Source: a virus (lineage: Duplodnaviria > Heunggongvirae > Uroviricota > Caudoviricetes). From it: 64,000 nt of DNA. This document shows positions 1 to 18,203 of this stretch, in pieces. The notes beneath the pieces were generated by a model. The model saw only the letters and a program-made list of their open reading frames with translations, was not told where the DNA came from and ran no database searches. Both the position numbers and the translations under genes were made by a program. The stretch is from IMG/VR virus record IMGVR_UViG_2713896908_000007. The stretch is one strand, 5' to 3'. The first letter of the stretch is position 1. Each line of letters opens with the position of its first letter.

Positions 1-1790
<1,790 letters not shown>

Positions 1791-1819
1791 AAAAAGCCCG
1801 GCGTTCGGGCTTTTCTGTT
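1791..1819. terminator. bidirectional rho-independent terminator between convergent genes
   Basis: A-run, AGCCCG-GCGTT-CGGGCT hairpin, T-run; lies between the two convergent stop codons. Confidence 0.6.
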
Positions 1820-1836
1820 ATGACGGGTTCAATTTT

Positions 1837-2835
1837 TTATCCGTTACCGCGCGACGGTTTCTGCGTGATAAACGTATCAAGCATCTTTTCCGCAATTGCC
1901 GACCAGGTGTGACACTGGACCTTTTCAGCATTTTTCACGCGATCAATGCGAGCAATAACCTCATCCCAATCAATCCGCGACTTGATAACCATATGGTTCA
2001 CCAAAGCCAGGCGATCCGGCGGAAGACAATCGGGCGGCGTTAATATCAACGCCCCACACATTGCCGCCTCAAGAACAGTTAATCCAAGGCTTTCGGGATG
2101 CGTAACGATAAAAACGTCACTCTTACGCAATTCAGCTGCAAATTCGGTTGCTGGTACCGGCGTCCGTCTGTATGGGGTTACCGATATATTCCCTGGATCA
2201 ATGGTAATCAATCCGTCATCGGTCAACGTTCTGGCCTCATACGGAACGGTCAGACGCTGAAGGTTCATAAGGATACTTAAGGAGTGATCAAAACCACTAA
2301 CATCAAATGCAGCGTGGTCTACAAAAATACGCAGAACATCGTCTGTTTTGGTTTCCAGATGGAACAGCTCCTGATTCGCTGCCCATCCAACATGTTTGTT
2401 AAAACGATTATGGCGCTCTAACCTGCCGGGATTATCCAGGTACCGCCAGGTATCATCGCGGACAGTAAAAGTAATATCGACTGGTGCCGAATCCAGCATA
2501 GAACCGTCGTATACCTGGGCTACCCATCCAGTAAATCGACGACGCAGTTGCACGCCTATTTCCCTGGGCACCGTAGTAAAATACCTCAATCCTGGTGCCA
2601 AAATGGCCTTCGCAGAACATGCGGTCGCAGCAGTCAACACAGCTTCAACATAATCCTCCGGGCTTTCGACGCCGGGGGAATATGGACGATGGTATTGCAA
2701 TGTTACCCCAGCCTCACTAAAGGCGCAGGCCAGGTTATAAGCCCACATTTCCGTATATGTTTTCACATCACTGATGGCTTCAAATTTTCGCCCAATGATC
2801 AGGATGTTCATCGGCTTTTCCTCATTCCATTGCAT
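1837..2835 (-). CDS. glycosyltransferase-like protein (GT-B C-terminal half), at the P1 dbn position
   Basis: C-terminal THPESLGLTVLEAAMCGALIL resembles the GT-B E-x7-E region; stop/start overlap with ban. Confidence 0.45.
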   Translation of the reverse strand: MQWNEEKPMNILIIGRKFEAISDVKTYTEMWAYNLACAFSEAGVTLQYHRPYSPGVESPEDYVEAVLTAATACSAKAILAPGLRYFTTVPREIGVQLRRRFTGWVAQVYDGSMLDSAPVDITFTVRDDTWRYLDNPGRLERHNRFNKHVGWAANQELFHLETKTDDVLRIFVDHAAFDVSGFDHSLSILMNLQRLTVPYEARTLTDDGLITIDPGNISVTPYRRTPVPATEFAAELRKSDVFIVTHPESLGLTVLEAAMCGALILTPPDCLPPDRLALVNHMVIKSRIDWDEVIARIDRVKNAEKVQCHTWSAIAEKMLDTFITQKPSRGNG

Positions 2836-4199
2836 TAATAATCCTCTTGCCAGTCAGCACCAGCATAGTTATCAAATCGTGAATACTGGCCGTTAAAAGC
2901 CAATCTCACCGTGCCAATCGGGCCATTTCGTTGCTTACCAATAATCACCTCGGCAATGCCCTTCATTTCGCTATCCGGGTGATAAACCTCGTCGCGATAC
3001 AGAAACATGATCAGGTCTGCGTCCTGTTCAATTGCTCCAGATTCACGCAAATCTGAATTTACCGGTCGTTTGTCCGCACGCTGTTCAAGCGAGCGATTAA
3101 GTTGTGACAATGCCACCACCGGCACCTGTAATTCCTTCGCCAACGCCTTAAGTGAGCGAGAAATCTCGGCAATTTCCAGCGTTCGGTTGTCTTGCAGCTC
3201 GGGGACGCGCATAAGTTGCAGGTAGTCGATCATGATCATGCTCAATCCGCCATTTTCTTTATAAACACGACGAGCACGGGAACGAAGCTCTGTAGGTGTC
3301 AGGGCGCTTGAGTCATCAATAAAAATATTCTGCTTGTCCAACAGAATCCCCATTGCACCAGAAACACGCGCCCAATCCTCGTCGTTAAGTTGCCCCGTTC
3401 TAATACGAGTCTGATCAACACGTGCAAGAGAGGCCAGTGAGCGCATCATCAGCTGGTGGCTTGGCATCTCAAGGCTAAAAACCAATACAGGCTTATCGCT
3501 ACGGACTGCGGCATTTTCGACAAGATTCATCGCAAACGTAGTCTTTCCCATAGATGGGCGGGCGGCGACAATAGTGAGATCGGATGGCTGAAGCCCTGCC
3601 GTCTTCTTATTGAGATCGGTAAATCCGGTATCAAGCCCCGTTACACCATCATGCGGTCGCTGAAACAACTCTTCTATGCGAGATACCGTTGCATCGAGAA
3701 TGCTGGCGATATCTTTTGGACCACTACCGCTCTTTTGTCGTTTTTCAGCTATTTCAAAAACGCGGCGCTCGGCCATATCCAGCAATTCATTGCTGCTCCG
3801 GCCATCCTGCGCATATCCAGCTTCGGCTATTTCATTTGCGACGGAAATCATTTCACGAACAACCGCACGTTCACGAACGATATCCGCATAAGCACAAATA
3901 TTTGCCGCGCTGGGCGTGTTCTTTGACATCTCCGCAAGGTACGCAAAACCACCGGCGCGTTCTAATTTACCGTTCTGTTCAAGTGCTTCAGCAAGTGTTA
4001 TCAAATCAATCGGTTTGCCATGACTTAATAACCTCTCCATCTCACTGAAAATTTCACGATGAGCACTGGTATAAAAATCATCAGCAACTATACGATCTGC
4101 AACTTCATCCCAGCGGCAGTTATCAAGCATTAAGCCACCAAGCACAGCTTGTTCTGCACTAAGGGAATTTGGCATGGATTCAAGAGGGGATGCAGACAT
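2835..4199 (-). CDS. ban: replicative DNA helicase, DnaB family (P1 Ban-like)
   Basis: N-terminal AEQAVLGGLMLDN and Walker A GKTTFAMNL; RecA-like core; likely start is the ATG two codons inside the track ORF, preceded by GGAG. Confidence 0.85.
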   Translation of the reverse strand: MSASPLESMPNSLSAEQAVLGGLMLDNCRWDEVADRIVADDFYTSAHREIFSEMERLLSHGKPIDLITLAEALEQNGKLERAGGFAYLAEMSKNTPSAANICAYADIVRERAVVREMISVANEIAEAGYAQDGRSSNELLDMAERRVFEIAEKRQKSGSGPKDIASILDATVSRIEELFQRPHDGVTGLDTGFTDLNKKTAGLQPSDLTIVAARPSMGKTTFAMNLVENAAVRSDKPVLVFSLEMPSHQLMMRSLASLARVDQTRIRTGQLNDEDWARVSGAMGILLDKQNIFIDDSSALTPTELRSRARRVYKENGGLSMIMIDYLQLMRVPELQDNRTLEIAEISRSLKALAKELQVPVVALSQLNRSLEQRADKRPVNSDLRESGAIEQDADLIMFLYRDEVYHPDSEMKGIAEVIIGKQRNGPIGTVRLAFNGQYSRFDNYAGADWQEDY

Positions 4200-4484
4200 T
4201 AACACTCCACCCTGGTGTGCTGAATGTCAGATATAATCGGCATACTCAAATCACTCCTAACGATATGAGTCATCACCAGAAAATCAGGATTAATGCGCCG
4301 GACTCTTCCCGGCTGTCACACCGAATCGCCAGGATGGTGAGTCCCTGTATCCGCTATCCCTCCAACGGTGACTTGCACATTCCGGCTACCTGGTTTGTTG
4401 CCTGAGCTAGGGGAAAAGGTAACCCCTTTAACGTCACCAGACCGCTAACGACGCATGTGCCAGACGCCGTGTTACAACCAAATG

Positions 4485-4560
4485 TGGTGACCCCTACCGG
4501 ACTTGAACCGGTGACCGTGCGATTATGAGTCGCCAGCTCTAACCACTGAGCTAAAGGGCC
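4485..4560 (-). tRNA. tRNA with anticodon CAU (Ile2-lysidine type or Met)
   Basis: 76-nt cloverleaf GGCCCTT...CTCATAA...GGTTCAAGTCC...CCA; 7-bp acceptor stem; T-loop consensus; encoded CCA. Confidence 0.85.
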
Positions 4561-4563
4561 GGA

Positions 4564-4671
4564 TTACTGTTTCCTAAGTGCTTCAATGGCGCTAACAACG
4601 CCGCCTACAACTATGGCAACAATGATAATGAGAACAATTGGATACTTGTCAGCAAAATCCCAGAAGCCCAT
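4564..4671 (-). CDS. 35-aa hydrophobic single-pass membrane peptide
   Basis: MGFWDFADKYPIVLIIIVAIVVGGVVSAIEALRKQ; start overlaps the upstream stop (TGATG); below the ORF-track size cutoff. Confidence 0.35.
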   Translation of the reverse strand: MGFWDFADKYPIVLIIIVAIVVGGVVSAIEALRKQ

Positions 4672-4835
4672 CACTGATCCTTCGAAGCTGTTTTAAATAT
4701 CGGCCATACCAATGTTACAGCCACTGCCACCAACGCCCCGTCCGATAAAACTGACAGGATTGTGCTGGTGAAATCCACCAGCACGGACAGCAAGAGAAAA
4801 CCAATGGCGATTGCGATACGTGCCTTGCTTGCCAT
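4671..4835 (-). CDS. 54-aa hydrophobic membrane peptide
   Basis: MASKARIAIAIGFLLLSVLVDFTSTILSVLSDGALVAVAVTLVWPIFKTASKDQ; ATG overlaps the TerB-like stop (TAATG). Confidence 0.35.
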   Translation of the reverse strand: MASKARIAIAIGFLLLSVLVDFTSTILSVLSDGALVAVAVTLVWPIFKTASKDQ

Positions 4836-5269
4836 TACAGATAATCTTCCACACGAAGACCTAAACGACGGCCTACTTCTTCCAGTACTTTGTGTTCTGC
4901 TGGCTCGATTTCACCGTCCGCTTCTGCAATCGTCAGCATGTTAACGAATACTTCTTCCGCTTCTTTTGGGTCGTTTTTGATATCTTCAATTTCGCGAAGG
5001 ATATTCATGCGACCAACACGGAAGCCAGCTTCCAGTTGCTCGGTAAAGCGGGTAATTGTTGCGGTAATTTCGTTACCAAAATGACTAAGACGCGGATTAG
5101 AGCGGATAAGCTGATCAAGTTTCGCTGTTTCTTCTTTTTTGATTTCACCATCAGCGGCAGACACCAACAAACAGCCACCGATAATGGCCTCCATCAGATC
5201 GCGATTCTCAACTTTTTTCAGCTCTACTTTTGCAGAAGCGACTTTCTTGCCGAACAATTTACCGAACAT
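4835..5269 (-). CDS. TerB-like (tellurite-resistance domain) protein
   Basis: 144 aa with paired acidic DGE motifs (AADGEIKKEE, AEADGEIEPAEH) typical of the TerB fold; first gene of a coupled operon. Confidence 0.55.
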   Translation of the reverse strand: MFGKLFGKKVASAKVELKKVENRDLMEAIIGGCLLVSAADGEIKKEETAKLDQLIRSNPRLSHFGNEITATITRFTEQLEAGFRVGRMNILREIEDIKNDPKEAEEVFVNMLTIAEADGEIEPAEHKVLEEVGRRLGLRVEDYL

Positions 5270-6758: not shown

Positions 6759-9700
6759 ATAGCAATAACGTCATGAGCTACACCACGAGTGTTCCCCTTA
6801 CAAGACACAGAACGTCTGGCAAAAAGAGGTTCCACTCTGAAGCCACTGTCTTGGTAAAGCTCCCTGATGTTTGGCGCACCACTATTAGTAATGAGGATCT
6901 TTGCACCTCGGCGATGAGCATCCATTAGCAGAGATACCAGGCGTTTTTGCTCTTCAAACTTAAAGTCATGACCGGAATAGTTTGTAAACCCCTCTGTATT
7001 GGGGAGCGGTTCATACGGAGGATCGCAAAAGATGACATCTCCTTCTCCGGCAGCTTCAATCACCGCTGAAAAATCACCACATACAAACTCAGAACGCCCT
7101 TCAGCACCAAGGAAGGCTTCCATCTCCTGTAATGGGAAATACGGAGTTTTATACTTCCCATAACCAACATTAAACTCACCGGCCTGGTTGTAACGCGTCA
7201 ATCCGTTAAAACAATGTCGGTTCAGGAACAAAAACGCTGCTGCACGATGTAAATCATCATAGGCTTGTTTGTTAAACGCATTCCGTACTGCCAGGTATCC
7301 TTCCTGTGTGTTGTAGTCCTGGAAAAACCGATGCGCCAGAGTGATAAGTGAATGACCCTCACGTTGCAGAGTCCTGTAAAAGTTAATCAGGTCAGCATTC
7401 ACATCATTTAGCAGATTTTCTTGATATCCGGCATTTATGAAGACAGCTCCGCCACCAACGAAAGGCTCGATCAGGCGCTTTCCGTCAGGTAAATGCCTAA
7501 AGATTTGTTCAAGAACACCAAATTTTCCGCCGACCCATTTAAATATGGGACGGTCAAATTCTGCCGTTAGCTTAACTCTCCGTTCTGTTGCTTCATGATT
7601 TTTTGCCTGCTGATATGCAGCCTTAATAATCCGCTCACCAATCCATCGCATTACTGGTATCGCCATGCTATTGCCGATCGCTTTGTAACGCGGTCCGTCA
7701 GCTGCAAGCATCGCGGCCTCTTCTTCGCTTAAATCTGGATAGTGATTGCGAAGGTATGCCAGTTCATCTGAAGTAACTTTTTTACGCTTTTCCGTCGGGA
7801 TCAACGTATGCCCATCAGGAAAACCTTGCAGTCTTTCACATTCGACAGGGGTAAGACGGCGGACAGCTACTGCTGCGTTTCCTACGTCATAGCAAACGGC
7901 TGTTGTATTTTTGGCCATTAAAGATGGTGAAGTATTCTTAGTTGCAGCATGTTGTGTACCGCTCATACGCTCAGGAAAAGCCAATGTAACAAGATGCTCA
8001 TGGCTTTCTTGCTCACGTGCCCGCAATGTACCATGCCCTTCTGACCAAAAACCTGCTCCTGTGCTGCTAAAAACTGCAAGGTCAGTGGCATCTTTAAAGT
8101 CTCTCGCCTTTACTGTCGATGCGGTTTCATCGCCAATATATTCCCCAAATGCCGCCATCCTGAAAGCGTTTACGGCTTTCGTCGATTTCATACCGGGGGT
8201 AATGTCAGCGTGTAGGCATGGATTTAGGCTTTCGCCACTGATTGCAGCGCCATTTGCAATAATGGCGGAAGCGATTTCCTTCTTTTTTCGGCTCGGCGCA
8301 ATATTCCGGCGCACGCCTTCGAACTCAAAAAGTACCGTTGCGGGATCGAGGTCTGTTCGAGCACTTGCGACAACAAACACGCGTCGGCGTCGTTGTGCCA
8401 CTCCGAAGTATTGGGCATCAAGGATTCTCCAGGCCACCTTTCGCTGCGGTCCATAAATACAACCACACTGCGGCCACTTTGGAGCATGGCAACCGGTTTT
8501 GCCATCCCACCGCCAGAACGCGTTACTTTTTCCTGATTCAGGTCGATCACCTGGTTCAAATGGCGCATCTTCTCCAGCCAATCCGGCAAGGAAACATCCG
8601 AAGGCGTTATCTGCCGATGACAAGACTCCTGGGACATTTTCCCAGACGATAACGGCTGGTTTGAGAAATGACTCAGCCCGTTTGTCGTCAATTGCATTTG
8701 CAAGCTCCACATACTTTAAAGTTAGCGCGCCACGCTCATCATCAAGCCCACCACGTAATCCCGCGATACTGAATGCCTGACAGTTATGGACCACCGCACC
8801 ATTGAGAATATAGGAATGATCACCTTCGACTTCTATGTTGTATACAGTATCTAGGCCTACCGATTTAAACTCTTTGACTGTTCGTAAAAGCATTCCATGA
8901 GCCAATCTTGATTTACGTGACAATTTCTGCGGGCAGATTGTTACCTGATAATAATTCCGTTGATTTACCACGCGATCCTCGATCACTTTTTTGGGCTCAA
9001 CTTCAATAAAGCTGACCGAAGAAACATAACCACAAGTCTGTGACACCCCCGCAACGCCCCAAGCAAGCGCAGGACTAACACTATTAATTCTAAATCCCGC
9101 TTTACCACTTGGTGTCCCATCAGTATCAAGATAGCCTTGTAAAAACACATGACGCAATGGATGCGACATCACCCATGCAGGGATACGCTTAGCATGGCTT
9201 AACTCGCCAAAATGTTCATTAAGCCAATTGGCATAACACGTATCATTCAAGGTTACTTTGATGCTCCCTCGGATTTCTCTTGCCACGGAAAATATGTTTT
9301 CTGGTATGCGACAATGAAACTTTCTCAATTTCTGGCAATTTATGCCAAAAACAACCGCCTTCTTAGATTTACCTCTCCATCTCCTAATATATCCATCGCC
9401 AACATAAGCGCCCGCAAGATACATAGCCTGTTCTTCAGACAAGAACCGAGAACAAATATCTGGAGATGCAATATTGAAATTAGTTAGAGCGCACCATTGA
9501 TATCCTGGCATATCACATGCTGCTCGCCATTCCGGTTCAGACAACAACTCTCTCTTAAAATATGTGCCATTTTTCCGGGTGTTTTGGGCTTTCCACCGAA
9601 CAGCCAGGAAGGGATGGTCATTGGTTGTTCTTATACCTAAAGGCTGCCCAACGGCATTAAGTAACCCCGTATTAGCTATTTTTGAACCAACTCTTTTTAC

Positions 9701-10036
9701 TTGTTGTAACCGCCCGAGATGACTGACTACGTAATCGCCAGGGCAAACATCTTCTATTGGTTTATAACCATTTTTACAAAGAACCATATGCCCCGCGGTA
9801 AAACATGGTGTTCCCCCGACGAGCACGTCAGGGGATTCGATTTCCCCAGCCAGGACTTTTTTGGCAAGTTTAGTCATGTCGTCAAGGTTGGCGACATGGG
9901 GCCAGCGGTGCGCAAGAACGGCCGATGGAAAAGACTCGATTTCAGCAAACCACGCCGGACGCATACCCAACGGTTCCCAGGCAATACTCGCGGCTTCAAT
10001 TCCACTGCAAACAGATCCATAGCACAGCTCTTTCAC
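6749..10036 (-). CDS. dmt: bifunctional DNA methyltransferase (N-terminal C5-cytosine MTase, C-terminal Dam-like N6-adenine MTase) with an intein
   Basis: C5 motifs ([30 protein letters not shown]) then Dam motifs ([22 protein letters not shown]); GTG start overlaps the hrdC stop. Confidence 0.85.
8783..9805 (-). other. intein (341 aa) with LAGLIDADG homing-endonuclease motifs, inserted before the catalytic Cys of C5-MTase motif IV
   Basis: GGTP|CFTAGHMVL...TNDHPF...[10 protein letters not shown]...[10 protein letters not shown]...[13 protein letters not shown]|CQAFSIAG; excision restores [12 protein letters not shown]. Confidence 0.8.
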
Positions 10037-10938
10037 TGCTTAGCCTCTCCACCAAGGGCATTTACCAGAGCATCAACCAGGCACGAAATTTCACTGGTCA
10101 ACAGGAAGAAATCTGCGTCCAGTCGCTGCGCGACATCTTCACTATCAATATCAGAGTTCTGCTCAAGCAATTCATCCGCAAATTTGACGCTGGTAAGGCT
10201 GAAGTTATGGTCCAGTGTAAATTTAATGCGGTTCTGCCAGTCGAGTGCCAACTTAGTGACGAGCTTGCCAGCTTCCAGGTGTGTGGAAATTTCATCGCTT
10301 CCCAAATCCTGCTTTTTCACTCGGGCAATACCGCCATCCTCAAGCACTGCCTTAAGTTCTGCCGCATCCCCCATTTGAAATCCCTGTGGAGCACTACCAT
10401 CACGTACCCAGTCGGTCAGCGTTAATTCAATGGGATTTTCAACACTTAGGGGAACAACAGGAAGAGAACCCAGAGATTTACGCATAAGCGCGAGCATATC
10501 CTCTGCCTGCCGCGCGCTGGCATTGATATAGATACGTTTAGTTGAACCGTCGTAGATCGCCTGGATAACAGAAAACTTTGAAAAAGCCCGTGGCAGAAGA
10601 GAATGCAGAACTTCGTCTTTCAGGGAGTCCTTCTCTGTTTTCTTCAGTTTACGCGCTTGTTCTTGCTCAAGTTTTCCAATTTTTTCTTGAATAGCTCGCT
10701 GGATAACCGGCGGGGGAAGAATTTTTGTTTCGCGCTTTGCTTCAACAAGGATAAAACCATTTCCATGCATAGCGATAACTTCGGAATTATCACCAAATGG
10801 CGATACAAAACCGAACTTGGCCATATCCTGACTACCGCATGGCGTGAAAAGGATCATTTTCGTTTTATCTTCTAAGTCGGTCAGATCCGCCTCACGAGAA
10901 AGTTTATAAATAGTAATGTTTTTCCAGTGCTTAAACAT
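10033..10938 (-). CDS. hrdC: recombination-associated protein RdgC homologue
   Basis: Collinear with remembered E. coli RdgC ([40 protein letters not shown]); start ATG at 10938 overlaps the upstream stop. Confidence 0.85.
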
Positions 10939-11287
10939 GTTGTAACCCTTGAATATCAACCACAGAAAGCTCGTCTTTGTAGAAAAATGCCAGGTTGTGG
11001 CCCCCCCTCGTTTGAGCGTATGAGCTGGGACCAATTTCGTTCTTCCAGACAAATGGCTTCAAATCCGTACGGCGAAGCATAAAAACGCGATTTGTTCCGC
11101 TCTGATTCCCAATGAGGCAAAAGCCTTCTTTCACCTTGATAGCCTGCAAGTTGTCGAGTTCACCGCTGGTTACACGGCTATCGAACTCCTTGCGGCTTAT
11201 TAGCTCCATCTGCATCTGACGACTCCAAACAAATGCCCATTGAAGGGCGATGGCTGAATAGTACCGAAAACACGACATAAAAAACAA
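10931..11287 (-). CDS. small protein upstream of hrdC (uhr-like); true start probably an internal Met
   Basis: ORF coupled to hrdC; the track start is a TTG inside the operator, so MQMELISRK is more plausible. Confidence 0.4.
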
Positions 11288-11303
11288 TATTCATTAGAGC
11301 AAT
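11287..11303. promoter_or_regulatory. C1-type operator upstream of the uhr-hrdC-dmt operon
   Basis: ATATTCATTAGAGCAAT, 15/17 to the reverse-orientation consensus. Confidence 0.5.
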
Positions 11304-11384
11304 TTTACAGCAAGTGAATGCCATGTAGACCACAAACAACCTAAGTTAAAATAACGAAAATCAGAGCAAATCATTGGTGATGAC

Positions 11385-11669
11385 GTGACAAGTATTGCAA
11401 CAAAAGACAGCATTTGTTCGGGGCACGGAGGATTCCCATCCAGACCTCCTGTAGAGAGTGAACCACTACTTAAAGTCAACGGAGTCGAAGTGTTAGTTGA
11501 TGGTAAGCAATATGCACAGCATACCGATGGAAACAGTACGCACGGTGGGCAAGCTATATCAACTAGGGCATGGTTTACCGTCAATGGTAAAGGGGTCGTA
11601 TGCGTTGGTGACCCTGTTTCATGCGGCTCTACCGTAGCGTCAGGAGACGCCCTGGTTCAGGTAAGTTAG
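11385..11669 (+). CDS. small Gly/Cys-containing protein, possibly PAAR-like
   Basis: 94-aa ORF with GTG start; SICSGHGG and VCVGDPVSCGS motifs; assignment weak. Confidence 0.3.
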   Translation: MTSIATKDSICSGHGGFPSRPPVESEPLLKVNGVEVLVDGKQYAQHTDGNSTHGGQAISTRAWFTVNGKGVVCVGDPVSCGSTVASGDALVQVS

Positions 11670-11677
11670 GAGATATC

Positions 11678-12466
11678 ATGCTGGAAAAAGACTACCAGTT
11701 ATCCGCATATAAAAAATTGGCCGCAGCCGGTGGGATGAAAACACCTGGTGCCATAACATCGGCACGAAACAGCGCTAACACAGCAAAACAGCTTGCAGAA
11801 GAATTGACCGGATTAATTTTGGATACAATTGTCTATCCCGACACTATTACCAGCTATGTTTCAACGATCAGAACAACCACAACCGGCTTAACGAACATTG
11901 GAGAACTGGCAACTAAGCACGCGGACCTGTTGGCTGGTTATGCAGATCTGTCAATGCTGCTTCAACTCGATATTGGTTGGGATGTTTACTGCCGTGCTAA
12001 TGAGCGAGAAGTATCAGAACTGCTGATCTCTATTGCCATTGGTGATGTGACTATTACTAAATCGCTTGAGGACGCTGTAAACGCGCTTAATACATCAAGT
12101 TTAGTCGCTGCTATGGGGGAGATTAACCAGACCATTAACACTGGCTCAGGAAGTTCGTCAGGCACTAGTTCAGGCGGCGGCACTGCCACTCCCCCACCAG
12201 CACTAACAGAAAAGCAAATTGAGGCTCTGAAAGTAGCAACTGAACAGTTTGGGGTAGTTTTCAACCAAACAACAGCGCCCACAGTTGCATTGCAACAGCA
12301 GTATGAACGAGCGAAGGAAAGCGCCAGCGTAGCCATAACTGCTTATAACCATGCTATCGGAACCGCGCTGGCGGAAGCATCAGCAAATAAGGCCAGCACC
12401 GCCAGCGCAGTCGCAGCTTTGGTTCCTGATTCTGTTCTTGATGAATTAAACAAGGCGACACTTTAA
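11678..12466 (+). CDS. hypothetical protein with Ser/Gly/Thr-rich linker
   Basis: ATG at 11678 preceded by AGGAG; low-complexity GSGSSSGTSSGGGTATPPP segment; no domain recognised. Confidence 0.45.
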   Translation: MLEKDYQLSAYKKLAAAGGMKTPGAITSARNSANTAKQLAEELTGLILDTIVYPDTITSYVSTIRTTTTGLTNIGELATKHADLLAGYADLSMLLQLDIGWDVYCRANEREVSELLISIAIGDVTITKSLEDAVNALNTSSLVAAMGEINQTINTGSGSSSGTSSGGGTATPPPALTEKQIEALKVATEQFGVVFNQTTAPTVALQQQYERAKESASVAITAYNHAIGTALAEASANKASTASAVAALVPDSVLDELNKATL

Positions 12467-12505
12467 CAAAGGACTTCACAGATAATTTTTCTTCAGGAGG
12501 AAGAA

Positions 12506-12928
12506 ATGTCGTTTTTTTCAACGTTAAAAACAGCTTTGTCTTTGAAGGAGAAACTTGCTGTTACTGGTGTTCTTGTCCTGATTTGCGCACTCGTTGGTGC
12601 TGGGTTTGCATGGGAACGTCATCAGCTAAAGCAAGCCATGGAGAAAATTGGCAGTCTTGATCAGGCTGTTAAGGAACGTGATAAGTCAATAATGGATCTT
12701 AACCAGACCATTGAGACGATGAACAAAGCAGAGCAACATTTTCACAGCCAGGAAGTGAAAAATGAATCAGAACAAGCCAAGTATGCTGACAGGCAAATGG
12801 AACGAAAAGCTGAAGTTCAGAAACAACTTGTTGCGGCGGGTAATGTTCGCCAGCGCATTCCTGTTGACACTCAGCGGTTGCTCCGGGAGTCGATCAGCGA
12901 ATTTAACGCCGACGCCGACAAAGGTTAA
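12506..12928 (+). CDS. candidate i-spanin (Rz-like): N-terminal transmembrane helix plus coiled coil
   Basis: ATG with AGGAGG RBS; TM segment LAVTGVLVLICALVGAGFAW; charged helical remainder; overlaps a lipoprotein gene in another frame. Confidence 0.5.
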   Translation: MSFFSTLKTALSLKEKLAVTGVLVLICALVGAGFAWERHQLKQAMEKIGSLDQAVKERDKSIMDLNQTIETMNKAEQHFHSQEVKNESEQAKYADRQMERKAEVQKQLVAAGNVRQRIPVDTQRLLRESISEFNADADKG

Positions 12929-13094
12929 TCACCCTGCCCCCAAAAGTGCATTTATGTGCAGGATGCCAGAGTTTAGCAGTGAATATTTTGATGATCTGCC
13001 AGCCTATATCCTTGATACAGAAACGATGCTGATGGGGATTAACAGGAAGAATCGCAACGTTAATGATTACAACCGCGCTATCAGCGGTAACTAA
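12843..13094 (+). CDS. candidate o-spanin (Rz1-like) lipoprotein
   Basis: Lipobox FLLTLSGC then Pro-rich mature region; starts inside the 3' end of the i-spanin candidate in an alternative frame. Confidence 0.5.
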   Translation: MFASAFLLTLSGCSGSRSANLTPTPTKVNHPAPKSAFMCRMPEFSSEYFDDLPAYILDTETMLMGINRKNRNVNDYNRAISGN

Positions 13095-13105
13095 AAGGGA
13101 TTTTT

Positions 13106-13498
13106 ATGTCTGATAAAGTAACAGTAAAGCAAACTATCAACAAAGCGACTTCAATCTACAAAATTGAGCAAATCACTGTTGGCAAGCCAGGATCTGAACA
13201 ATACCGTCATGCTTTCGAGCTTGCCGATCAGCTTGGTTTAAAACATCCAGATTGTATCGAGCATGTATTTCCGACCTATGCTGATGAGCAATGTACTCAT
13301 GTTCTTACCGAAGAGGATTTTTTCAGCACTGAAGAACGAGAAGGCGTTGATCGCTGCATTGGTGTGATTTGTTCTTCGGTAAGTGATGAGTTATTCCCTA
13401 ATGTGCCTGAATATGGTGGTATTGGATACCAATTCCTGTACGAGGGCGATGAGCTTAAATGCTATGAACATGGTCTTCTCATCGAAAGCGTAGAATAA
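13106..13498 (+). CDS. hypothetical acidic protein upstream of the replicon origin
   Basis: 130-aa ORF with RBS, followed by a terminator hairpin; no domain recognised. Confidence 0.5.
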   Translation: MSDKVTVKQTINKATSIYKIEQITVGKPGSEQYRHAFELADQLGLKHPDCIEHVFPTYADEQCTHVLTEEDFFSTEEREGVDRCIGVICSSVSDELFPNVPEYGGIGYQFLYEGDELKCYEHGLLIESVE

Positions 13499-13512
13499 TA
13501 CGGCTTCCTTCC

Positions 13513-13540
13513 AACCGGCTTTGTTGGCCGGTTTATTCAA
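13513..13540 (+). terminator. rho-independent terminator
   Basis: AACCGGC / GCCGGTT hairpin followed by a T-rich tract. Confidence 0.5.
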
Positions 13541-13541
13541 C

Positions 13542-13620
13542 TTATCCACAGCATAGATCCAATAAACAGATCCAAAAGAGAACCCTAGAAGATCCAAATA
13601 AGATCCCGGATCGCTGCAGG
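13542..13620. promoter_or_regulatory. oriR-like origin elements: consensus DnaA box plus a cluster of five GATC sites
   Basis: TTATCCACA at about 13542-13550; repeated AGATCC heptamers within about 60 bp; immediately upstream of the iterons. Confidence 0.6.
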
Positions 13621-13650
13621 CCGCGCCATGTCTGGCCTGAAACGTGATCA

Positions 13651-13758
13651 ACATTGACTATATGCGATTTTATGTTGACTGTACACGATTTATTGTTGAC
13701 TACACGCGATTTTATGTTGACTATACGCGATATAAACATTGACTGTACGCGATTTTAA
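13651..13758 (+). repeat. iteron array: five direct repeats of about 21 bp (incC-like)
   Basis: Consensus TGTTGACTRTACRCGATTTTA at 21-22 bp spacing directly upstream of repA. Confidence 0.8.
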
Positions 13759-13833
13759 AGCCTGAATATTCACAGCTGTTGATAACAGCCATCCAAATTG
13801 ACGTCAGGCCGCGCCACACATGGAGAAACCACG

Positions 13834-14718
13834 ATGCCGGAAGAAAGTAAAGGCTTCCTTAGCGTTGAAGAAGTTGCAGGAAATACAGGAGAAATCCACA
13901 GCCTGAAACCCAATAACAACAGCACTATACAACCCATCGCTTTGTTGCGCTTAGGTGTGTTTGTGCCAACCTTAAAATCTACCAATGTGGCACTACGTCG
14001 CGGATCGTCAGTTACTACAAACACAACGAACGCAACCGAAGAACTATCAAGCCTCAAAATTGTTGAGCAGGAAGGCTATGAGGGAATTGAAATTCATGGT
14101 CCACGCCTGGATATGGATACTGATTTTAAGGTGTGGGTGGGCATAACCTCCGCGTTGTTTGACTATGCACCTGATGATGACGGTATAATTACCCTGCCAT
14201 TCTCCGAGTTTGCCGATCGATGCGGCTATCCACGTAAGCGCCTTTCAAAGGCGTTCCGTAAAAGTATTGATGACTCTCTGACACGCATTCAGCAGACAGT
14301 TGTCAAATTCCGCTTCCCGGCGGCAAAAGGTCATCTCAATAACATTAACGTCAACTTGTTGGCATATAGCAGCCTGAATACCGAGCTTGATGTTATCGAG
14401 ATCCAGCCGCAGAAACAGCTATCTGAACTTTACTATGTTGACTATAAGCGAATCCTGAAGCTGAAGATGCTGGATAAGCTCGGGCGCAAAGAGACGGCCA
14501 AGGTACTGTATACATTCTTTGAGGCTCTACCTGCCAACCCAGCACCTGTCAGCATTGAGCGCCTTAGAGCAAGGCTTAACCTCAAATCATCCGTTAGCGT
14601 GCAAAATAGCGTTATCAGAAAAGCCATGAAAGATTTGGAAGCTATTGAATATCTTAAATTTTCAGAGATAAAAAACGGCAGGAAAATCGGCTTCCAGATC
14701 CATAAGCGCAATCCATAA
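13834..14718 (+). CDS. repA: iteron-binding plasmid replication initiator RepA
   Basis: Shares PIALLRLGVFVP and GPRLDMDTDFK blocks with remembered P1 RepA but diverges elsewhere; ATG at 13834 with GGAG RBS. Confidence 0.8.
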   Translation: MPEESKGFLSVEEVAGNTGEIHSLKPNNNSTIQPIALLRLGVFVPTLKSTNVALRRGSSVTTNTTNATEELSSLKIVEQEGYEGIEIHGPRLDMDTDFKVWVGITSALFDYAPDDDGIITLPFSEFADRCGYPRKRLSKAFRKSIDDSLTRIQQTVVKFRFPAAKGHLNNINVNLLAYSSLNTELDVIEIQPQKQLSELYYVDYKRILKLKMLDKLGRKETAKVLYTFFEALPANPAPVSIERLRARLNLKSSVSVQNSVIRKAMKDLEAIEYLKFSEIKNGRKIGFQIHKRNP

Positions 14719-14720
14719 TA

Positions 14721-14980
14721 TTGACTATATGCGATAGCGAGAAGTTGACTATAGGCGACATTCGTTGACGCTGGTGGATTTTTGCTGGCGTCAATATTCT
14801 GCAAGTCGCTATTGAGATGGCTTTTAGGGTCATTTCATCGCGTATAGTCAACGTTTCTCCCGACAATATCTTACATAGTCGATCTTTGGTGGAGTTAAAT
14901 CGACTACAGTCAACTTTTGACTGTGGTCATATCGCGCATAGTCAACTATTCACATTAACCTTCGCGCATAGTCAACATTT
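14721..14980. repeat. second iteron cluster downstream of repA (incA-like), both orientations
   Basis: Eight or nine TTGACTATAYGCGA-type copies, direct and inverted, between the repA stop and the next gene. Confidence 0.7.
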
Positions 14981-15010
14981 GCGCGGTTCTCATCAAGCAG
15001 TGGTATTGAT

Positions 15011-15820
15011 ATGCAAGAAGAGAAACAACACTACCTCTACATTCTGGTGCCGGAGAACGGAGATACTTTTAAAATCGGCATTTCATGTGGTCCATTGGCA
15101 CGGTTTAAAGGGCTACAAGTGAGTCCCGATATTGCGCTTTCACGAATCTATCGTGGTACGCGTTTGGCAATGGTTAATCTTGAGCGGGCTTTACACGCAA
15201 CCTTTTTCCCCTGGAATGCGCCGTGGGAGAAAAGCGCCGGTGGCGGGTATACTGAATGGTTTACACGAGAGTGTCTTGATAAGGTTTTGGCTCATATCGA
15301 ATATCTAAATGATATGTGGGGAGGGATTCTCGAGCTCATTAAGTCGAATGATTTACTTCAGCGTCCAGTAGATGCTGCTCGCTCTTTCGAAAAAGAACTG
15401 GATGTTACTTCTATCGTGACTTTCAAAGATGACGCAGGAATGAGGGACGTGGCTTATGTCTCCATATCTGGCTATGACCCGGACGCGATCCGCGCTCAAT
15501 GTGAATTGCTGAAAGCAATGTTTATGCTTCGGACTAAATATCCCTGGGAGACAGGGCGGGTGTGCTTCCCTATGGAAGAGTTAACCGCCACCATTGATTC
15601 CCAGCTTTACCACGATAATCCAGAGAAGTTTTTTAGCCTTTTAACCGGTAATGGGCTTAACTGTGTGTCCGGGCTGGGGCGAAGTAGAATCCAACATGCC
15701 TCGCTCTTCGGTCCCTTCTTTTACGATCGACACGGGTACTTTGAGGCTGAACTTCCGGCGCTTACGCGTGCTATAGATACTATCGATTTCGAACGATTAT
15801 TCGCTGCTCTTAGCAAATAA
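15011..15820 (+). CDS. T5orf172 (GIY-YIG-like) domain protein
   Basis: N-terminal YLYILVPENGDTFKIGIS ... GGGYTEWF resembles the T5orf172/MUG113 domain; own terminator; sits between the incA-like iterons and parA. Confidence 0.6.
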   Translation: MQEEKQHYLYILVPENGDTFKIGISCGPLARFKGLQVSPDIALSRIYRGTRLAMVNLERALHATFFPWNAPWEKSAGGGYTEWFTRECLDKVLAHIEYLNDMWGGILELIKSNDLLQRPVDAARSFEKELDVTSIVTFKDDAGMRDVAYVSISGYDPDAIRAQCELLKAMFMLRTKYPWETGRVCFPMEELTATIDSQLYHDNPEKFFSLLTGNGLNCVSGLGRSRIQHASLFGPFFYDRHGYFEAELPALTRAIDTIDFERLFAALSK

Positions 15821-15827
15821 CACTGAT

Positions 15828-15848
15828 GCCCCTGAACGGGGCTTTTTT
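15828..15848 (+). terminator. rho-independent terminator
   Basis: GCCCC-TGAAC-GGGGC hairpin followed by TTTTTT. Confidence 0.8.
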
Positions 15849-15988
15849 GTGCCCTCCTTGCAACGCTCAATCGTGCAAAATGAACCAAACATGCAGAGAA
15901 TGCTATGTACAAGCATCTGCGCATACATTATTATTTTATGTAGCATTTTTAATTAAATTCAAAAATACAGCATAAAGGATGACTTTCG

Positions 15989-17185
15989 ATGAGTGATTCC
16001 AGCCAGCTTCACAAGGTTGCTCAAAGAGCAAACAGAATGCTCAATGTTCTGACTGAACAAGTACAGTTGCAAAAGGATGAGCTACACGCGAACGAGTTTT
16101 ACCAGGTCTATGCGAAAGCGGCACTGGCAAAATTGCCTCTACTGACTCGAGCGAACGTTGACTATGCCGTAAGTGAAATGGAAGAAAAGGGTTATGTTTT
16201 CGATAAACGCCCTGCTGGCTCTTCAATGAAATATGCGATGTCAATTCAGAACATCATTGATATATATGAACATCGCGGAGTGCCAAAATACCGGGATCGC
16301 TACAGCGAAGCGTATGTTATTTTCATCTCCAATCTTAAAGGCGGTGTGTCAAAAACTGTATCGACGGTTTCTCTGGCGCATGCAATGCGTGCCCACCCTC
16401 ATCTTCTGATGGAAGATTTAAGGATTCTGGTTATTGACCTTGATCCGCAATCTTCAGCAACGATGTTTTTAAGCCATAAACACTCTATTGGTATCGTAAA
16501 CGCAACATCTGCACAGGCTATGTTGCAGAATGTAAGCCGTGAAGAGCTGTTAGAGGAGTTTATTGTTCCTTCTGTTGTACCTGGGGTTGACGTTATGCCT
16601 GCGTCGATTGACGATGCCTTTATTGCATCCGATTGGAGAGAGCTGTGCAATGAGCATCTACCGGGTCAGAACATCCATGCTGTCCTGAAAGAAAATGTGA
16701 TTGATAAGCTGAAGAGCGATTATGATTTTATCCTCGTTGATAGTGGTCCTCACCTTGACGCCTTCCTGAAAAATGCTTTGGCCTCGGCCAATATACTGTT
16801 TACACCTCTGCCACCAGCAACGGTCGATTTCCACTCATCGCTTAAATACGTTGCCCGCCTTCCTGAGTTGGTGAAACTCATTTCGGATGAAGGCTGCGAG
16901 TGCCAGCTTGCGACTAACATTGGTTTTATGTCCAAGTTGAGTAACAAGGCAGACCATAAGTATTGCCATAGCCTGGCGAAAGAAGTGTTCGGTGGGGATA
17001 TGCTCGATGTCGTCCTACCTCGCCTTGATGGTTTCGAACGCTGCGGCGAGTCCTTTGACACTGTTATTTCTGCTAATCCGGCAACGTATGTTGGTAGTGC
17101 TGACGCACTGAAGAACGCGCGCATCGCCGCTGAAGATTTTGCAAAAGCAGTTTTTGACCGTATTGAATTTATCAGATCTAACTAA
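15989..17185 (+). CDS. parA: partition ATPase ParA (P1 type Ia)
   Basis: 398 aa; deviant Walker A KGGVSKT; N-terminal HTH extension; sequence matches remembered P1 ParA. Confidence 0.9.
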   Translation: MSDSSQLHKVAQRANRMLNVLTEQVQLQKDELHANEFYQVYAKAALAKLPLLTRANVDYAVSEMEEKGYVFDKRPAGSSMKYAMSIQNIIDIYEHRGVPKYRDRYSEAYVIFISNLKGGVSKTVSTVSLAHAMRAHPHLLMEDLRILVIDLDPQSSATMFLSHKHSIGIVNATSAQAMLQNVSREELLEEFIVPSVVPGVDVMPASIDDAFIASDWRELCNEHLPGQNIHAVLKENVIDKLKSDYDFILVDSGPHLDAFLKNALASANILFTPLPPATVDFHSSLKYVARLPELVKLISDEGCECQLATNIGFMSKLSNKADHKYCHSLAKEVFGGDMLDVVLPRLDGFERCGESFDTVISANPATYVGSADALKNARIAAEDFAKAVFDRIEFIRSN

Positions 17186-17201: not shown

Positions 17202-18203
17202 ATGTCAAAGAAAAACAGACCAACAATTGGGCGAACCCTTAATCCTTCAGTATTAAGCGCATTTGATAGTTCCTCTGCCTCTGGTGATCGGGTTGAGCAG
17301 GTATTCAAGCTATCAACTGGTCGCCAGGCTACATTCATTGAGGAGGTAATCCCTCCAAACCGGGTAGAAGGCGATACCTTTGTTGATCAGCATAACAACG
17401 GACGTGATCAGGCAGCTCTTACACCAAAATCATTAAAAAGCATCAGAAGCACCATTAAGCATCAGCAATTTTACCCAGCAATAGGTGTTAGACGGGCTAC
17501 AGGAAAAATTGAAATTTTGGATGGTTCCCGGCGTCGAGCTTCTGCCATCTTAGAGAACGTAGGGTTGCGGGTTTTAGTCACGGACCAGGAGATCAGCGTC
17601 CAGGAAGCGCAAAATTTAGCGAAAGACGTTCAGACAGCATTGCAGCACAGCATTCGAGAAATAGGTCTGCGTTTGATGCGAATGAAAAATGCTGGGATGA
17701 GTCAGAAGGATATTGCAGCCAAGGAAGGGCTATCTCAGGCGAAGGTCACGCGTGCTCTCCAGGCAGCGAGTGCTCCGGAAGAATTAGTCGCCCTTTTCCC
17801 TGTGCAGTCGGAATTAACCTTTTCGGACTACAAAACGCTTTGTGCTGTTGGCGACGAAATGGGGAACAAGAATTTAGAGTTTGATCAGCTTATTCAAAAC
17901 ATATCCCCGGAAATAAACGACATCTTATCCATTGAAGAAATGGCCGAAGATGAAGTTAAAAATAAAATCCTGCGCTTGATAACAAAGGAAGCCTCACTAC
18001 TCACGGATAAAGGTTCTAAAGATAAGTCCGTAGTTACTGAATTATGGAAATTTGAGGACAAAGATCGCTTTGCAAGGAAGCGCGTGAAAGGCCGTACCTT
18101 TTCCTATGAGTTTAATCGACTCTCTAAAGAGTTACAGGAAGAACTTGACAGGATGATTGGGCATATCCTAAGAAAAAGCCTCGATAAAAAGCCGAAACCT
18201 TAA
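17202..18203 (+). CDS. parB: centromere-binding partition protein ParB
   Basis: 333 aa; ParB box GSRRRAS; follows parA with RBS; matches remembered P1 ParB. Confidence 0.9.
   Translation: MSKKNRPTIGRTLNPSVLSAFDSSSASGDRVEQVFKLSTGRQATFIEEVIPPNRVEGDTFVDQHNNGRDQAALTPKSLKSIRSTIKHQQFYPAIGVRRATGKIEILDGSRRRASAILENVGLRVLVTDQEISVQEAQNLAKDVQTALQHSIREIGLRLMRMKNAGMSQKDIAAKEGLSQAKVTRALQAASAPEELVALFPVQSELTFSDYKTLCAVGDEMGNKNLEFDQLIQNISPEINDILSIEEMAEDEVKNKILRLITKEASLLTDKGSKDKSVVTELWKFEDKDRFARKRVKGRTFSYEFNRLSKELQEELDRMIGHILRKSLDKKPKP

Follow-up and report, generated by a model that had tools for sequence, protein, structure and literature searches.

A gene at positions 15011-15820 of the 64,000-nucleotide virus record IMGVR_UViG_2713896908_000007 (IMG/VR), the whole of which we call the window, may encode a site-specific DNA endonuclease that has two domains and belongs to the free-standing homing type, one that would act on co-resident relatives of its carrier and favour its own replicon cassette. 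We give this reading a probability of roughly two in five. Sequence comparison places the window among the P1-like phage-plasmids, in the SJ46/RCS47/JL22 group. On one side the gene is bordered by the iterons that follow a Rep3-type repA (the last at 14962-14980), on the other by a P1-type par promoter with parA and parB. A first-pass annotation of the same DNA, made from the sequence alone, had offered three possibilities for it, namely a DNA-binding regulator, a nuclease-like defence component or a selfish insertion, and it is the last of these that we favour. The homing-endonuclease-like reading is suggested by a conserved nuclease core linked to a fast-diverging DNA-binding domain, a fixed slot, patchy alleles and exchange together with the flanks.

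In the mechanism that we propose, the N-terminal T5orf172 domain (GIY-YIG superfamily) would do the cutting, and a flexible linker of ~20 residues would connect it to a C-terminal winged-helix domain of ~140 residues that would choose the DNA site. The gene occupies a polymorphic slot between incA-type iterons and the par promoter and would stand apart from the machinery of replication and partition. If a cell came to contain two related phage-plasmids, the nuclease would cut the rival copy at or close to the replicon. The break would be mended with the nuclease-bearing copy as template, so that the rival acquired the gene along with the linked iterons and repA, or else the rival would disappear from the cell. 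Either outcome would favour the nuclease-carrying cassette, and exchange of replicon cassettes may be driven or exploited by the process. What we infer from the observations below is the nuclease activity, the target and the homing or exclusion effect.

A GIY-YIG-like nuclease domain at the N-terminus

The open reading frame runs on the + strand from an ATG at 15011 to a TAA at 15818-15820 and specifies 269 amino acids. Both this frame and a terminator of its own had been proposed in the first pass and are confirmed here, the terminator being a strong intrinsic one. We take the frame to be a real gene and not a chance one, since homologues at 44%, 28% and 25% identity lie in the same synteny and the ratio of nonsynonymous to synonymous polymorphism (pN/pS) is below 1 in most comparisons. 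Its GC content equals that of the neighbouring genes, so it is not a recent arrival.

Pfam T5orf172 (PF10544) matches residues 8-85 of the product (E=4.4e-4; 21.2 bits against a gathering cut-off of 20 bits), and the proteins of the three other lineages introduced below score 25.1-27.8 bits against PF10544. PHROG 2876, a family of unknown function, matches over the full length, and the endonuclease family PHROG 681 gives a weak match. Structure-library matches in BFVD are to viral T5orf172, Hef-like and homing-endonuclease proteins, and the predicted structure has the alpha/beta fold of GIY-YIG domains. Y10, K21, G23, R31, S44, E58 and E82-W83-F84 are invariant in 30 members of the subfamily, with a spacing of Y10, K21, R31 and E82 that mirrors Y6, Y17, R27 and E75 of I-TevI. 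Because the motif spacing matches, R31 and E82 are the probable equivalents of I-TevI R27 and E75 and of E180 in Odn (Gp88), the origin-directed nuclease of phage ICP1. Odn retains the Arg and the Glu, and an E180A variant was made as the predicted catalytic-dead control (PMC8263062). The T5orf172/GIY-YIG assignment of the N-terminus that the first pass had made is upheld by the Pfam match and the invariant putative catalytic Arg and Glu, and the gene likely encodes a DNA-cutting protein.

A linker and a predicted winged helix at the C-terminus

In the linker, the predicted local distance difference test score (pLDDT) is below 50 at residues 117-125, and both length and sequence vary between lineages. 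An AlphaFold2 model computed from 3 sequences was poor (pLDDT 58.8); a second, from four lineages, reached 73.4. The top Foldseek matches are initiators, first 6h24_A (E 0.03, probability 0.95) and then RctB and RepE54, none of them reaching E 1e-3. We assign these Rep-like structural matches to residues 128-269, because residues 1-105 are already taken by the GIY-YIG fold. The C-terminal domain may thus be nearest in structure, weakly and tentatively, to WH1, the dimerisation domain of Rep3-type plasmid initiators.

The C-terminal residues had been left without a family in the first pass, and our searches agree. No Pfam match was found at E up to 10 for the C-terminal domains of the four lineages, Rep3 (PF01051) included; neither NCBIfam nor PADLOC gave a match to any part of the protein, and a PDB sequence-profile search returned one insignificant match. 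When the domain was aligned with five P1-family RepA proteins, hhalign returned a probability of 0.2%; with the Rep3_N part of P0015, which belongs to the same T5orf172 subfamily, it returned 3.4%. On these values we rejected a recent copy of the adjoining RepA, as in Odn, as the origin of the domain.

Other members of the T5orf172 subfamily may lend the winged-helix C-terminus indirect support. At the position of the C-terminal domain, P0015 has another DNA-binding domain (Pfam Rep3_N, E 8e-7) and P0012 has a MarR-like winged helix-turn-helix. P0015 comes from a metagenome contig (ERZ27248471 k133_128515, L012:104-1771, GC 24%), where it is fused to Rep3_N (WH1); one in-frame TAA falls inside a conserved Rep3 motif, and Rep3_C follows. 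It appears to be either a T5orf172-Rep3 initiator fusion or the pseudogene of one, Odn-like in its domain content.

One slot in P1-like phage-plasmids

An exhaustive HMMER scan of 1.84 billion representative proteins gave 168 hits at E<=1e-3, nearly all of them to the N-terminal domain alone. Full-length relatives were found in only three other lineages, P0004 (44% identity), P0009 (28%) and P0011 (25%), and each resides in a P1-like element with the order rdgC, PAAR, ppfA, repA, gene, parA, parB, gp23. As judged from these sequences, the family consists of four divergent lineages confined to one slot of P1-like elements. Searching PLSDB and INPHARED by tblastn with P0009 recovered only window-type copies, and a profile scan of genome contigs with the 4-sequence alignment added one close copy and one unrelated T5orf172 match. 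The wider T5orf172 subfamily is found in other settings, with P0146 among phage genes for replication and nucleotide metabolism, and P0158 and P0159 in unrelated chromosomal or mobile-element contexts. We rejected a general association of this subfamily with replicons, as only P0015 is fused to Rep3.

In PLSDB, 401 records have the gene and 399 the window-type repA, a linkage of ~1:1, and by a derived count ~375 records have the IncY/P1 arrangement without the gene. About half of the P1-like phage-plasmids carry it. Universal presence at this position, which the first pass had named as the finding that would speak against an insertion, is not what we see: the slot is empty in those ~375 IncY plasmids, in P1, in Cronobacter phage JK004 and in the Salmonella plasmid p21-SA00706-0. 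Nor is the gene a one-off, being present in essentially every p0111-type replicon, with three further divergent alleles at the same slot. Of two large plasmids checked, one is a cointegrate that keeps the repA-gene-parA order and the other has an IS1-truncated copy and retains parA-parB.

The gene also accompanies an IncY-like replicon, that of locus L005, whose RepA is 83% identical to P1 RepA. L005 and JK004 (RepA 91% identical) form the closest filled/empty pair. Collinearity extends across repA to the last iteron, after which L005 has 980 base pairs (bp) with the gene and JK004 has 75 bp of unrelated filler; it is restored from the par promoter (Ppar) at 93.8% identity. For this pair the difference is a clean insertion or deletion. 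Compared with P1, L005 has 7977-8993 in place of a 213-bp filler. Presence and absence alternate at one fixed intergenic site, the incA/Ppar junction, as they do for homing-endonuclease genes. A tblastn search of the 213-bp incA-Ppar spacer of P1 with all four alleles revealed no significant remnant of the gene.

Exchange of the replicon cassette

The replicon of the window differs from that of P1. By blastn, window positions 10000-13636 match P1 (L001) 865-4506 at 95.6%. This homology ends at 13636, a point within oriR that follows the DnaA-box/GATC part and closely precedes the incC iterons, and it restarts at 15887, just before Ppar. Between these points 2250 bp of the window (13637-15886) stand in for 1491 bp of P1 without DNA homology, and the flanks are 95-99% identical. 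The RepA proteins of the window and P1 share 42% identity, and parA, parB, upfA and gp23 are 97-99.7% identical. P1-type RepA and the 19-bp incC/incA iterons of the IncY replicon are absent from the window, whose iterons have the core TTGACTRYAYGCGAT. Sequence matches identify the block as the alternative "p0111" cassette, an iteron-repA-iteron unit with the gene as its last element: the window and the p0111 type are 98-100% identical in nucleotides, and with 13700-16000 as the query, 12 phage records match over at least 94% of the length at 97.7-98.3% identity. The difference between the IncY and p0111 replicons has been described, with the gene mentioned as unknown "gp57" (PMC9603915).

The first-pass annotation had seen an insertion between the P1 replicon and the partition operon. 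The gene does sit there, and P1 does lack it at this place, as had been stated; the replicon, however, is not that of P1, and the whole iteron-repA-iteron-gene block has been exchanged. A simple insertion into the P1 replicon is ruled out, as the entire interval 13637-15886 differs from P1.

Cassette replacement with sharp boundaries is observed twice, in the window against P1 and in locus L004 against L005. The DNA flanks of L004 and L005 are 94-99% identical and the flanking proteins 98-99.7%, whereas RepA is 41% and the gene product 28% identical, which indicates that the cassette with its gene has been exchanged between these two as well. Their right boundary lies 60-85 bp beyond the stop codon of the gene, as in the window. 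In the IncY plasmids RCS32TR557_p (L010) and p035_A-VIM-1 (L011), which have P7-type parAB (ParA 401 amino acids), homology to P1 is lost at the end of incA (L001:5826); the incA/Ppar junction is therefore a general module boundary that also serves swaps of the partition module. Among 193 Salmonella P1-like elements, 17 switches between IncY and p0111 were inferred, and no mechanism was offered (PMC11165635). Ordinary recombination suffices to explain replicon switches, and a nuclease linked to the cassette is a candidate mechanism.

Sequence divergence and inactivated alleles

The gene changes faster than its neighbours. Among five close alleles, pN/pS is 0.15-1.0 for the gene, 0-0.10 for repA and 0.00 for parA, and the counts of nonsynonymous to synonymous changes are 10:6 in the gene against 12:54 in the pooled neighbours (Fisher p ~9e-4). 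The window and L004 share one iteron consensus and RepA proteins at 84% identity, and their gene products are 44% identical as a whole, with 31% identity over the C-terminal domain. Divergence of the gene is uncoupled from that of RepA and the iterons.

The majority of the ~1241 distinct full-length sequences are intact at 269 amino acids. Inactivated alleles are nonetheless frequent and independent. A nonsense change, S112* (TCG to TAG at codon 112), is found in pE2855-2, and 111-residue forms occur on 18 and 16 contigs. A 102-residue N-terminal fragment on 147 contigs and a 177-residue C-terminal fragment on 139 contigs look like the two halves of one split allele. Further inactivated forms are a 67-residue form on 95 contigs, a 227-residue allele and a truncation by IS1. 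Intact, degenerate and empty alleles occur side by side, as in a homing cycle. On the best reading of these sequences, the gene is dispensable for maintenance and fast-evolving. Its apparent dispensability, like the way it diverges independently of RepA and the iterons, speaks against a core role in replication or partition.

Weighing the explanations

Several points weigh against a homing-type nuclease. The window protein clears the Pfam cut-off only narrowly (21.2 against 20), and confidence in the structural model is moderate (pLDDT 73, predicted template modelling score 0.50). A consensus scan upstream of the gene found no sigma-70 promoter, so its expression may rely on read-through from the autorepressed repA promoter. 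Within PLSDB there is no p0111-type replicon without the gene and hence no empty partner of the same type to home into, which leaves only whole-cassette conversion workable. The 213-bp filler of P1 and the 75-bp filler of JK004 have no alignable common sequence, so that no conserved empty-site target is evident. The cleavage site, the target and the biased inheritance are all putative, and homologous recombination with selection for escape from incompatibility would explain the cassette swaps without a nuclease.

The protein could instead be a domesticated regulator that binds DNA or interacts with RepA, a live rival that we nevertheless consider unlikely. Its WH1-like domain would bind iterons or pair with RepA, thereby tuning initiation, handcuffing or copy number, or would insulate the par promoter, and the T5orf172 domain would serve as a DNA-binding module only, as in the PLE CapR repressor. 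The best non-nuclease structural neighbours are indeed Rep WH1 domains, the gene starts 31 bp past the end of the last iteron with no terminator in the repA-gene interval, so that co-transcription is possible, and in PLSDB it goes ~1:1 with the p0111-type repA. Relatives of T5orf172 homing endonucleases have also been domesticated elsewhere (PMC8096241). A regulator is nevertheless hard to reconcile with putative catalytic Arg and Glu residues that are invariant, with a C-terminal domain that is only 31% identical in L004 despite the shared iteron consensus and similar RepA, and with a profile comparison that shows no similarity to the cognate RepA. Many natural plasmids carry knock-out alleles, and repA and parA have a far lower pN/pS than the gene. 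Moreover, IncY-like replicons function whether the gene is present (L005) or not (JK004, P1), and a related RepA works without it in CP042620.1.

A nuclease directed at unrelated invaders, phages or plasmids, carried as cargo that protects the lysogen, is slightly less likely still. T5orf172 nucleases do take part in conflicts between mobile elements, Odn against PLE being an example (PMC8263062); fast evolution and patchy distribution are typical of conflict genes, and phage-plasmids often bear defence cargo. The defence option raised in the first pass nevertheless finds no support here, as the gene has no PADLOC model match at E up to 1 and no partner genes. It is a single gene without a sensor, flanked by repA and parA, and its family keeps to one intergenic slot of one plasmid family and does not occur in variable cargo regions or defence islands; a means of telling self from non-self is not evident. 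Standing alone and restricted to this slot, it does not look like a canonical defence system.

More doubtful again is an origin-directed nuclease engaged in replicon warfare, in which the Rep-WH1-like domain would read the iterons or initiator of a competing replicon type in a co-resident P1-like element and T5orf172 would cut there, with the rival eliminated or its replicon converted to the nuclease-bearing cassette. Plasmid incompatibility would then have a nuclease-based form. Sequence homology of the DNA-binding domain to an initiator, as in Odn, was looked for by hhalign and not found, which makes this Odn-like reading only a minority possibility.

Least probable is an inert relic, a once-mobile nuclease gene that is decaying, inactive in most carriers and kept by linkage to an essential replicon; the high pN/pS, the many independent truncations and the lack of a recognisable promoter would suit it, but most of the ~1241 distinct full-length sequences are intact, pN/pS is mostly <0.5, and in all four lineages, at 25-44% identity, the frame has stayed open and the catalytic-type residues are invariant.

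Comparison with known systems

The arrangement resembles that of phage GIY-YIG homing endonucleases (the Seg proteins of T4, I-TevI, and the putative T5orf172 types of T5 and ICP1) in several respects. These too have an N-terminal catalytic domain, a linker and a C-terminal DNA-binding domain; they too are encoded by stand-alone genes with their own terminators in intergenic slots between conserved genes, with intact, degenerate and empty alleles among close relatives and co-exchange of flanking markers. The window gene differs from them in its place, being in the plasmid-maintenance region of a phage-plasmid and not in a lytic-phage gene cluster. Its product has a predicted winged-helix, Rep-WH1-like C-terminus in contrast to the zinc-finger, minor-groove and helix-turn-helix string of I-TevI, and its target site and homing are putative.

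ICP1 Odn likewise joins T5orf172 to a domain resembling the DNA-binding domain of a plasmid initiator and is tied to modular, swapping iteron/Rep cassettes (PMC8263062). However, Odn is encoded by an attacker phage against a satellite, whereas the window gene is inside the replicon cassette itself. PLE CapR shows how a mobile element can turn a relative of T5orf172 homing endonucleases into a protein that binds a specific DNA sequence (PMC8096241). CapR corresponds to the DNA-binding part of these enzymes and acts as a repressor; in the window protein, by contrast, the T5orf172 domain and its conserved Arg and Glu are retained. The P1 replicon (oriR-repA-incA, IncY) and that of the window are alike in having origin iterons, an autoregulated Rep3-type repA, control iterons and P1 parAB, and differ in that P1 has 213 bp of non-coding filler where the window has the gene. 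Published descriptions of p0111 mention the gene only as an unknown open reading frame (PMC9603915, PMC11165635).

Significance

In Escherichia and Salmonella, P1-like phage-plasmids are a common vehicle of resistance genes, and their two replicon types switch often along the phylogeny. To our knowledge, no mechanism for this switching has been proposed so far. If the gene biases the inheritance of its cassette or removes rivals, replicon switching would be explained, a nuclease-based layer would be added to plasmid incompatibility, and the Odn precedent of T5orf172 with an initiator-like domain would extend from the Vibrio phage-satellite conflict to enterobacterial plasmids. An origin-directed nuclease in particular would supply a mechanism for the frequent switching from IncY to p0111. 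A homing endonuclease that is merely decaying would be a useful recombination marker at the incA/Ppar junction and of limited wider interest. The idea is relevant to phage-plasmid evolution, and unsurprising unless the origin-directed reading is true.

Already known are the RefSeq label of the gene, "GIY-YIG nuclease family protein", and the fact that it is replaced along with repA. New here are the restriction of the family to four lineages in one slot, the filled and empty pairs in both subgroups of P1-like elements, the definition of the cassette boundaries, the fast evolution and recurrent knock-outs, and a tentative Rep-WH1-like fold.

Features of the replicon region

Table 1 Coordinates of the gene, its predicted domains and the surrounding replicon and partition features in the window
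Feature	Position	Strand	Evidence or remark
Left part of plasmid origin, DnaA-box and GATC, P1 oriR homologue	13514-13636	+	blastn against P1; left cassette boundary; start approximate, mapped from P1
Five direct iterons, 21-22 bp spacing, core TTGACTRYAYGCGAT	13650-13752	+	Repeat search, motif listing
repA, Rep3-type initiator, "p0111" type (also annotated RepFIB/RepB)	13834-14718	+	Pfam Rep3_N, Rep3_C
Two forward downstream iterons	14717-14758	+	Repeat search, motif listing
Four reverse downstream iterons, incA-like array	14838-14980	-	Repeat search, inverted pairs
T5orf172 (GIY-YIG superfamily) nuclease-like domain, codons 1-105	15011-15325	+	Pfam, alignment, structure-library matches
Predicted flexible linker, codons 106-127	15326-15391	+	Low pLDDT, alignment gaps
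Winged-helix-containing C-terminal domain, codons 128-269	15392-15817	+	Predicted structure
Intrinsic terminator of the gene	15828-15850	+	GCCCC-TGAAC-GGGGC then T6
P1 homology restart/right cassette boundary, par promoter/operator region	15887-15988	+	Promoter-like site 15906-15934
parA, P1 type	15989-17185	+	99.7% identical to P1 protein
parB, P1 type	17202-18203	+	97.9% identical to P1 protein

The five direct iterons are the counterpart of P1 incC, with a different sequence; in the P1 annotation, oriR spans 4384-4625 and the incC iterons begin at 4522. Because the left cassette boundary falls within the origin, the origin of the window is a hybrid, with a P1-like DnaA-box/GATC part (95.6%) adjoining iterons of another replicon type. 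No Rfam RNA was matched across 13000-16500.

The start of repA is ambiguous. The longest frame begins at a TTG at 13798 (306 amino acids), and RefSeq and the homologues favour the ATG in Table 1 (294 amino acids). Within the repA coding sequence, at 14434-14451, there is an iteron-like copy, TATGTTGACTATAAGCGA (94% to the reference iteron), and L004 has one at the equivalent place (~9613). The iteron core includes TTGACT, a good -35 hexamer, which in the four reverse iterons faces back to repA; a promoter-like site on the - strand at 14751..14724 makes an antisense transcript possible. A non-P1 phage-plasmid, pNCYU-26-73-5 (CP042620.1, L022), encodes at 3986-4870 a RepA 85% identical to that of the window. 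It has no T5orf172 gene and no adjoining parAB; a tail gene comes next on the opposite strand, and the P1 gene order is absent.

Two public records of the gene call for caution. phi456 (OR339795.1) labels it "terminase small subunit", a likely misannotation, and vB_EcoM-673R5 (ON470615.2, L003) has indels in the gene and in parB that are likelier to be sequencing errors than biology. Both repA and the gene are 100% identical to those of the Escherichia albertii plasmid NZ_CP117651.1 (99,447 bp), and the allele of the gene that this plasmid shares with the window differs from other alleles by several nonsynonymous changes of its own (I11, I41, I46, Y80, L109).

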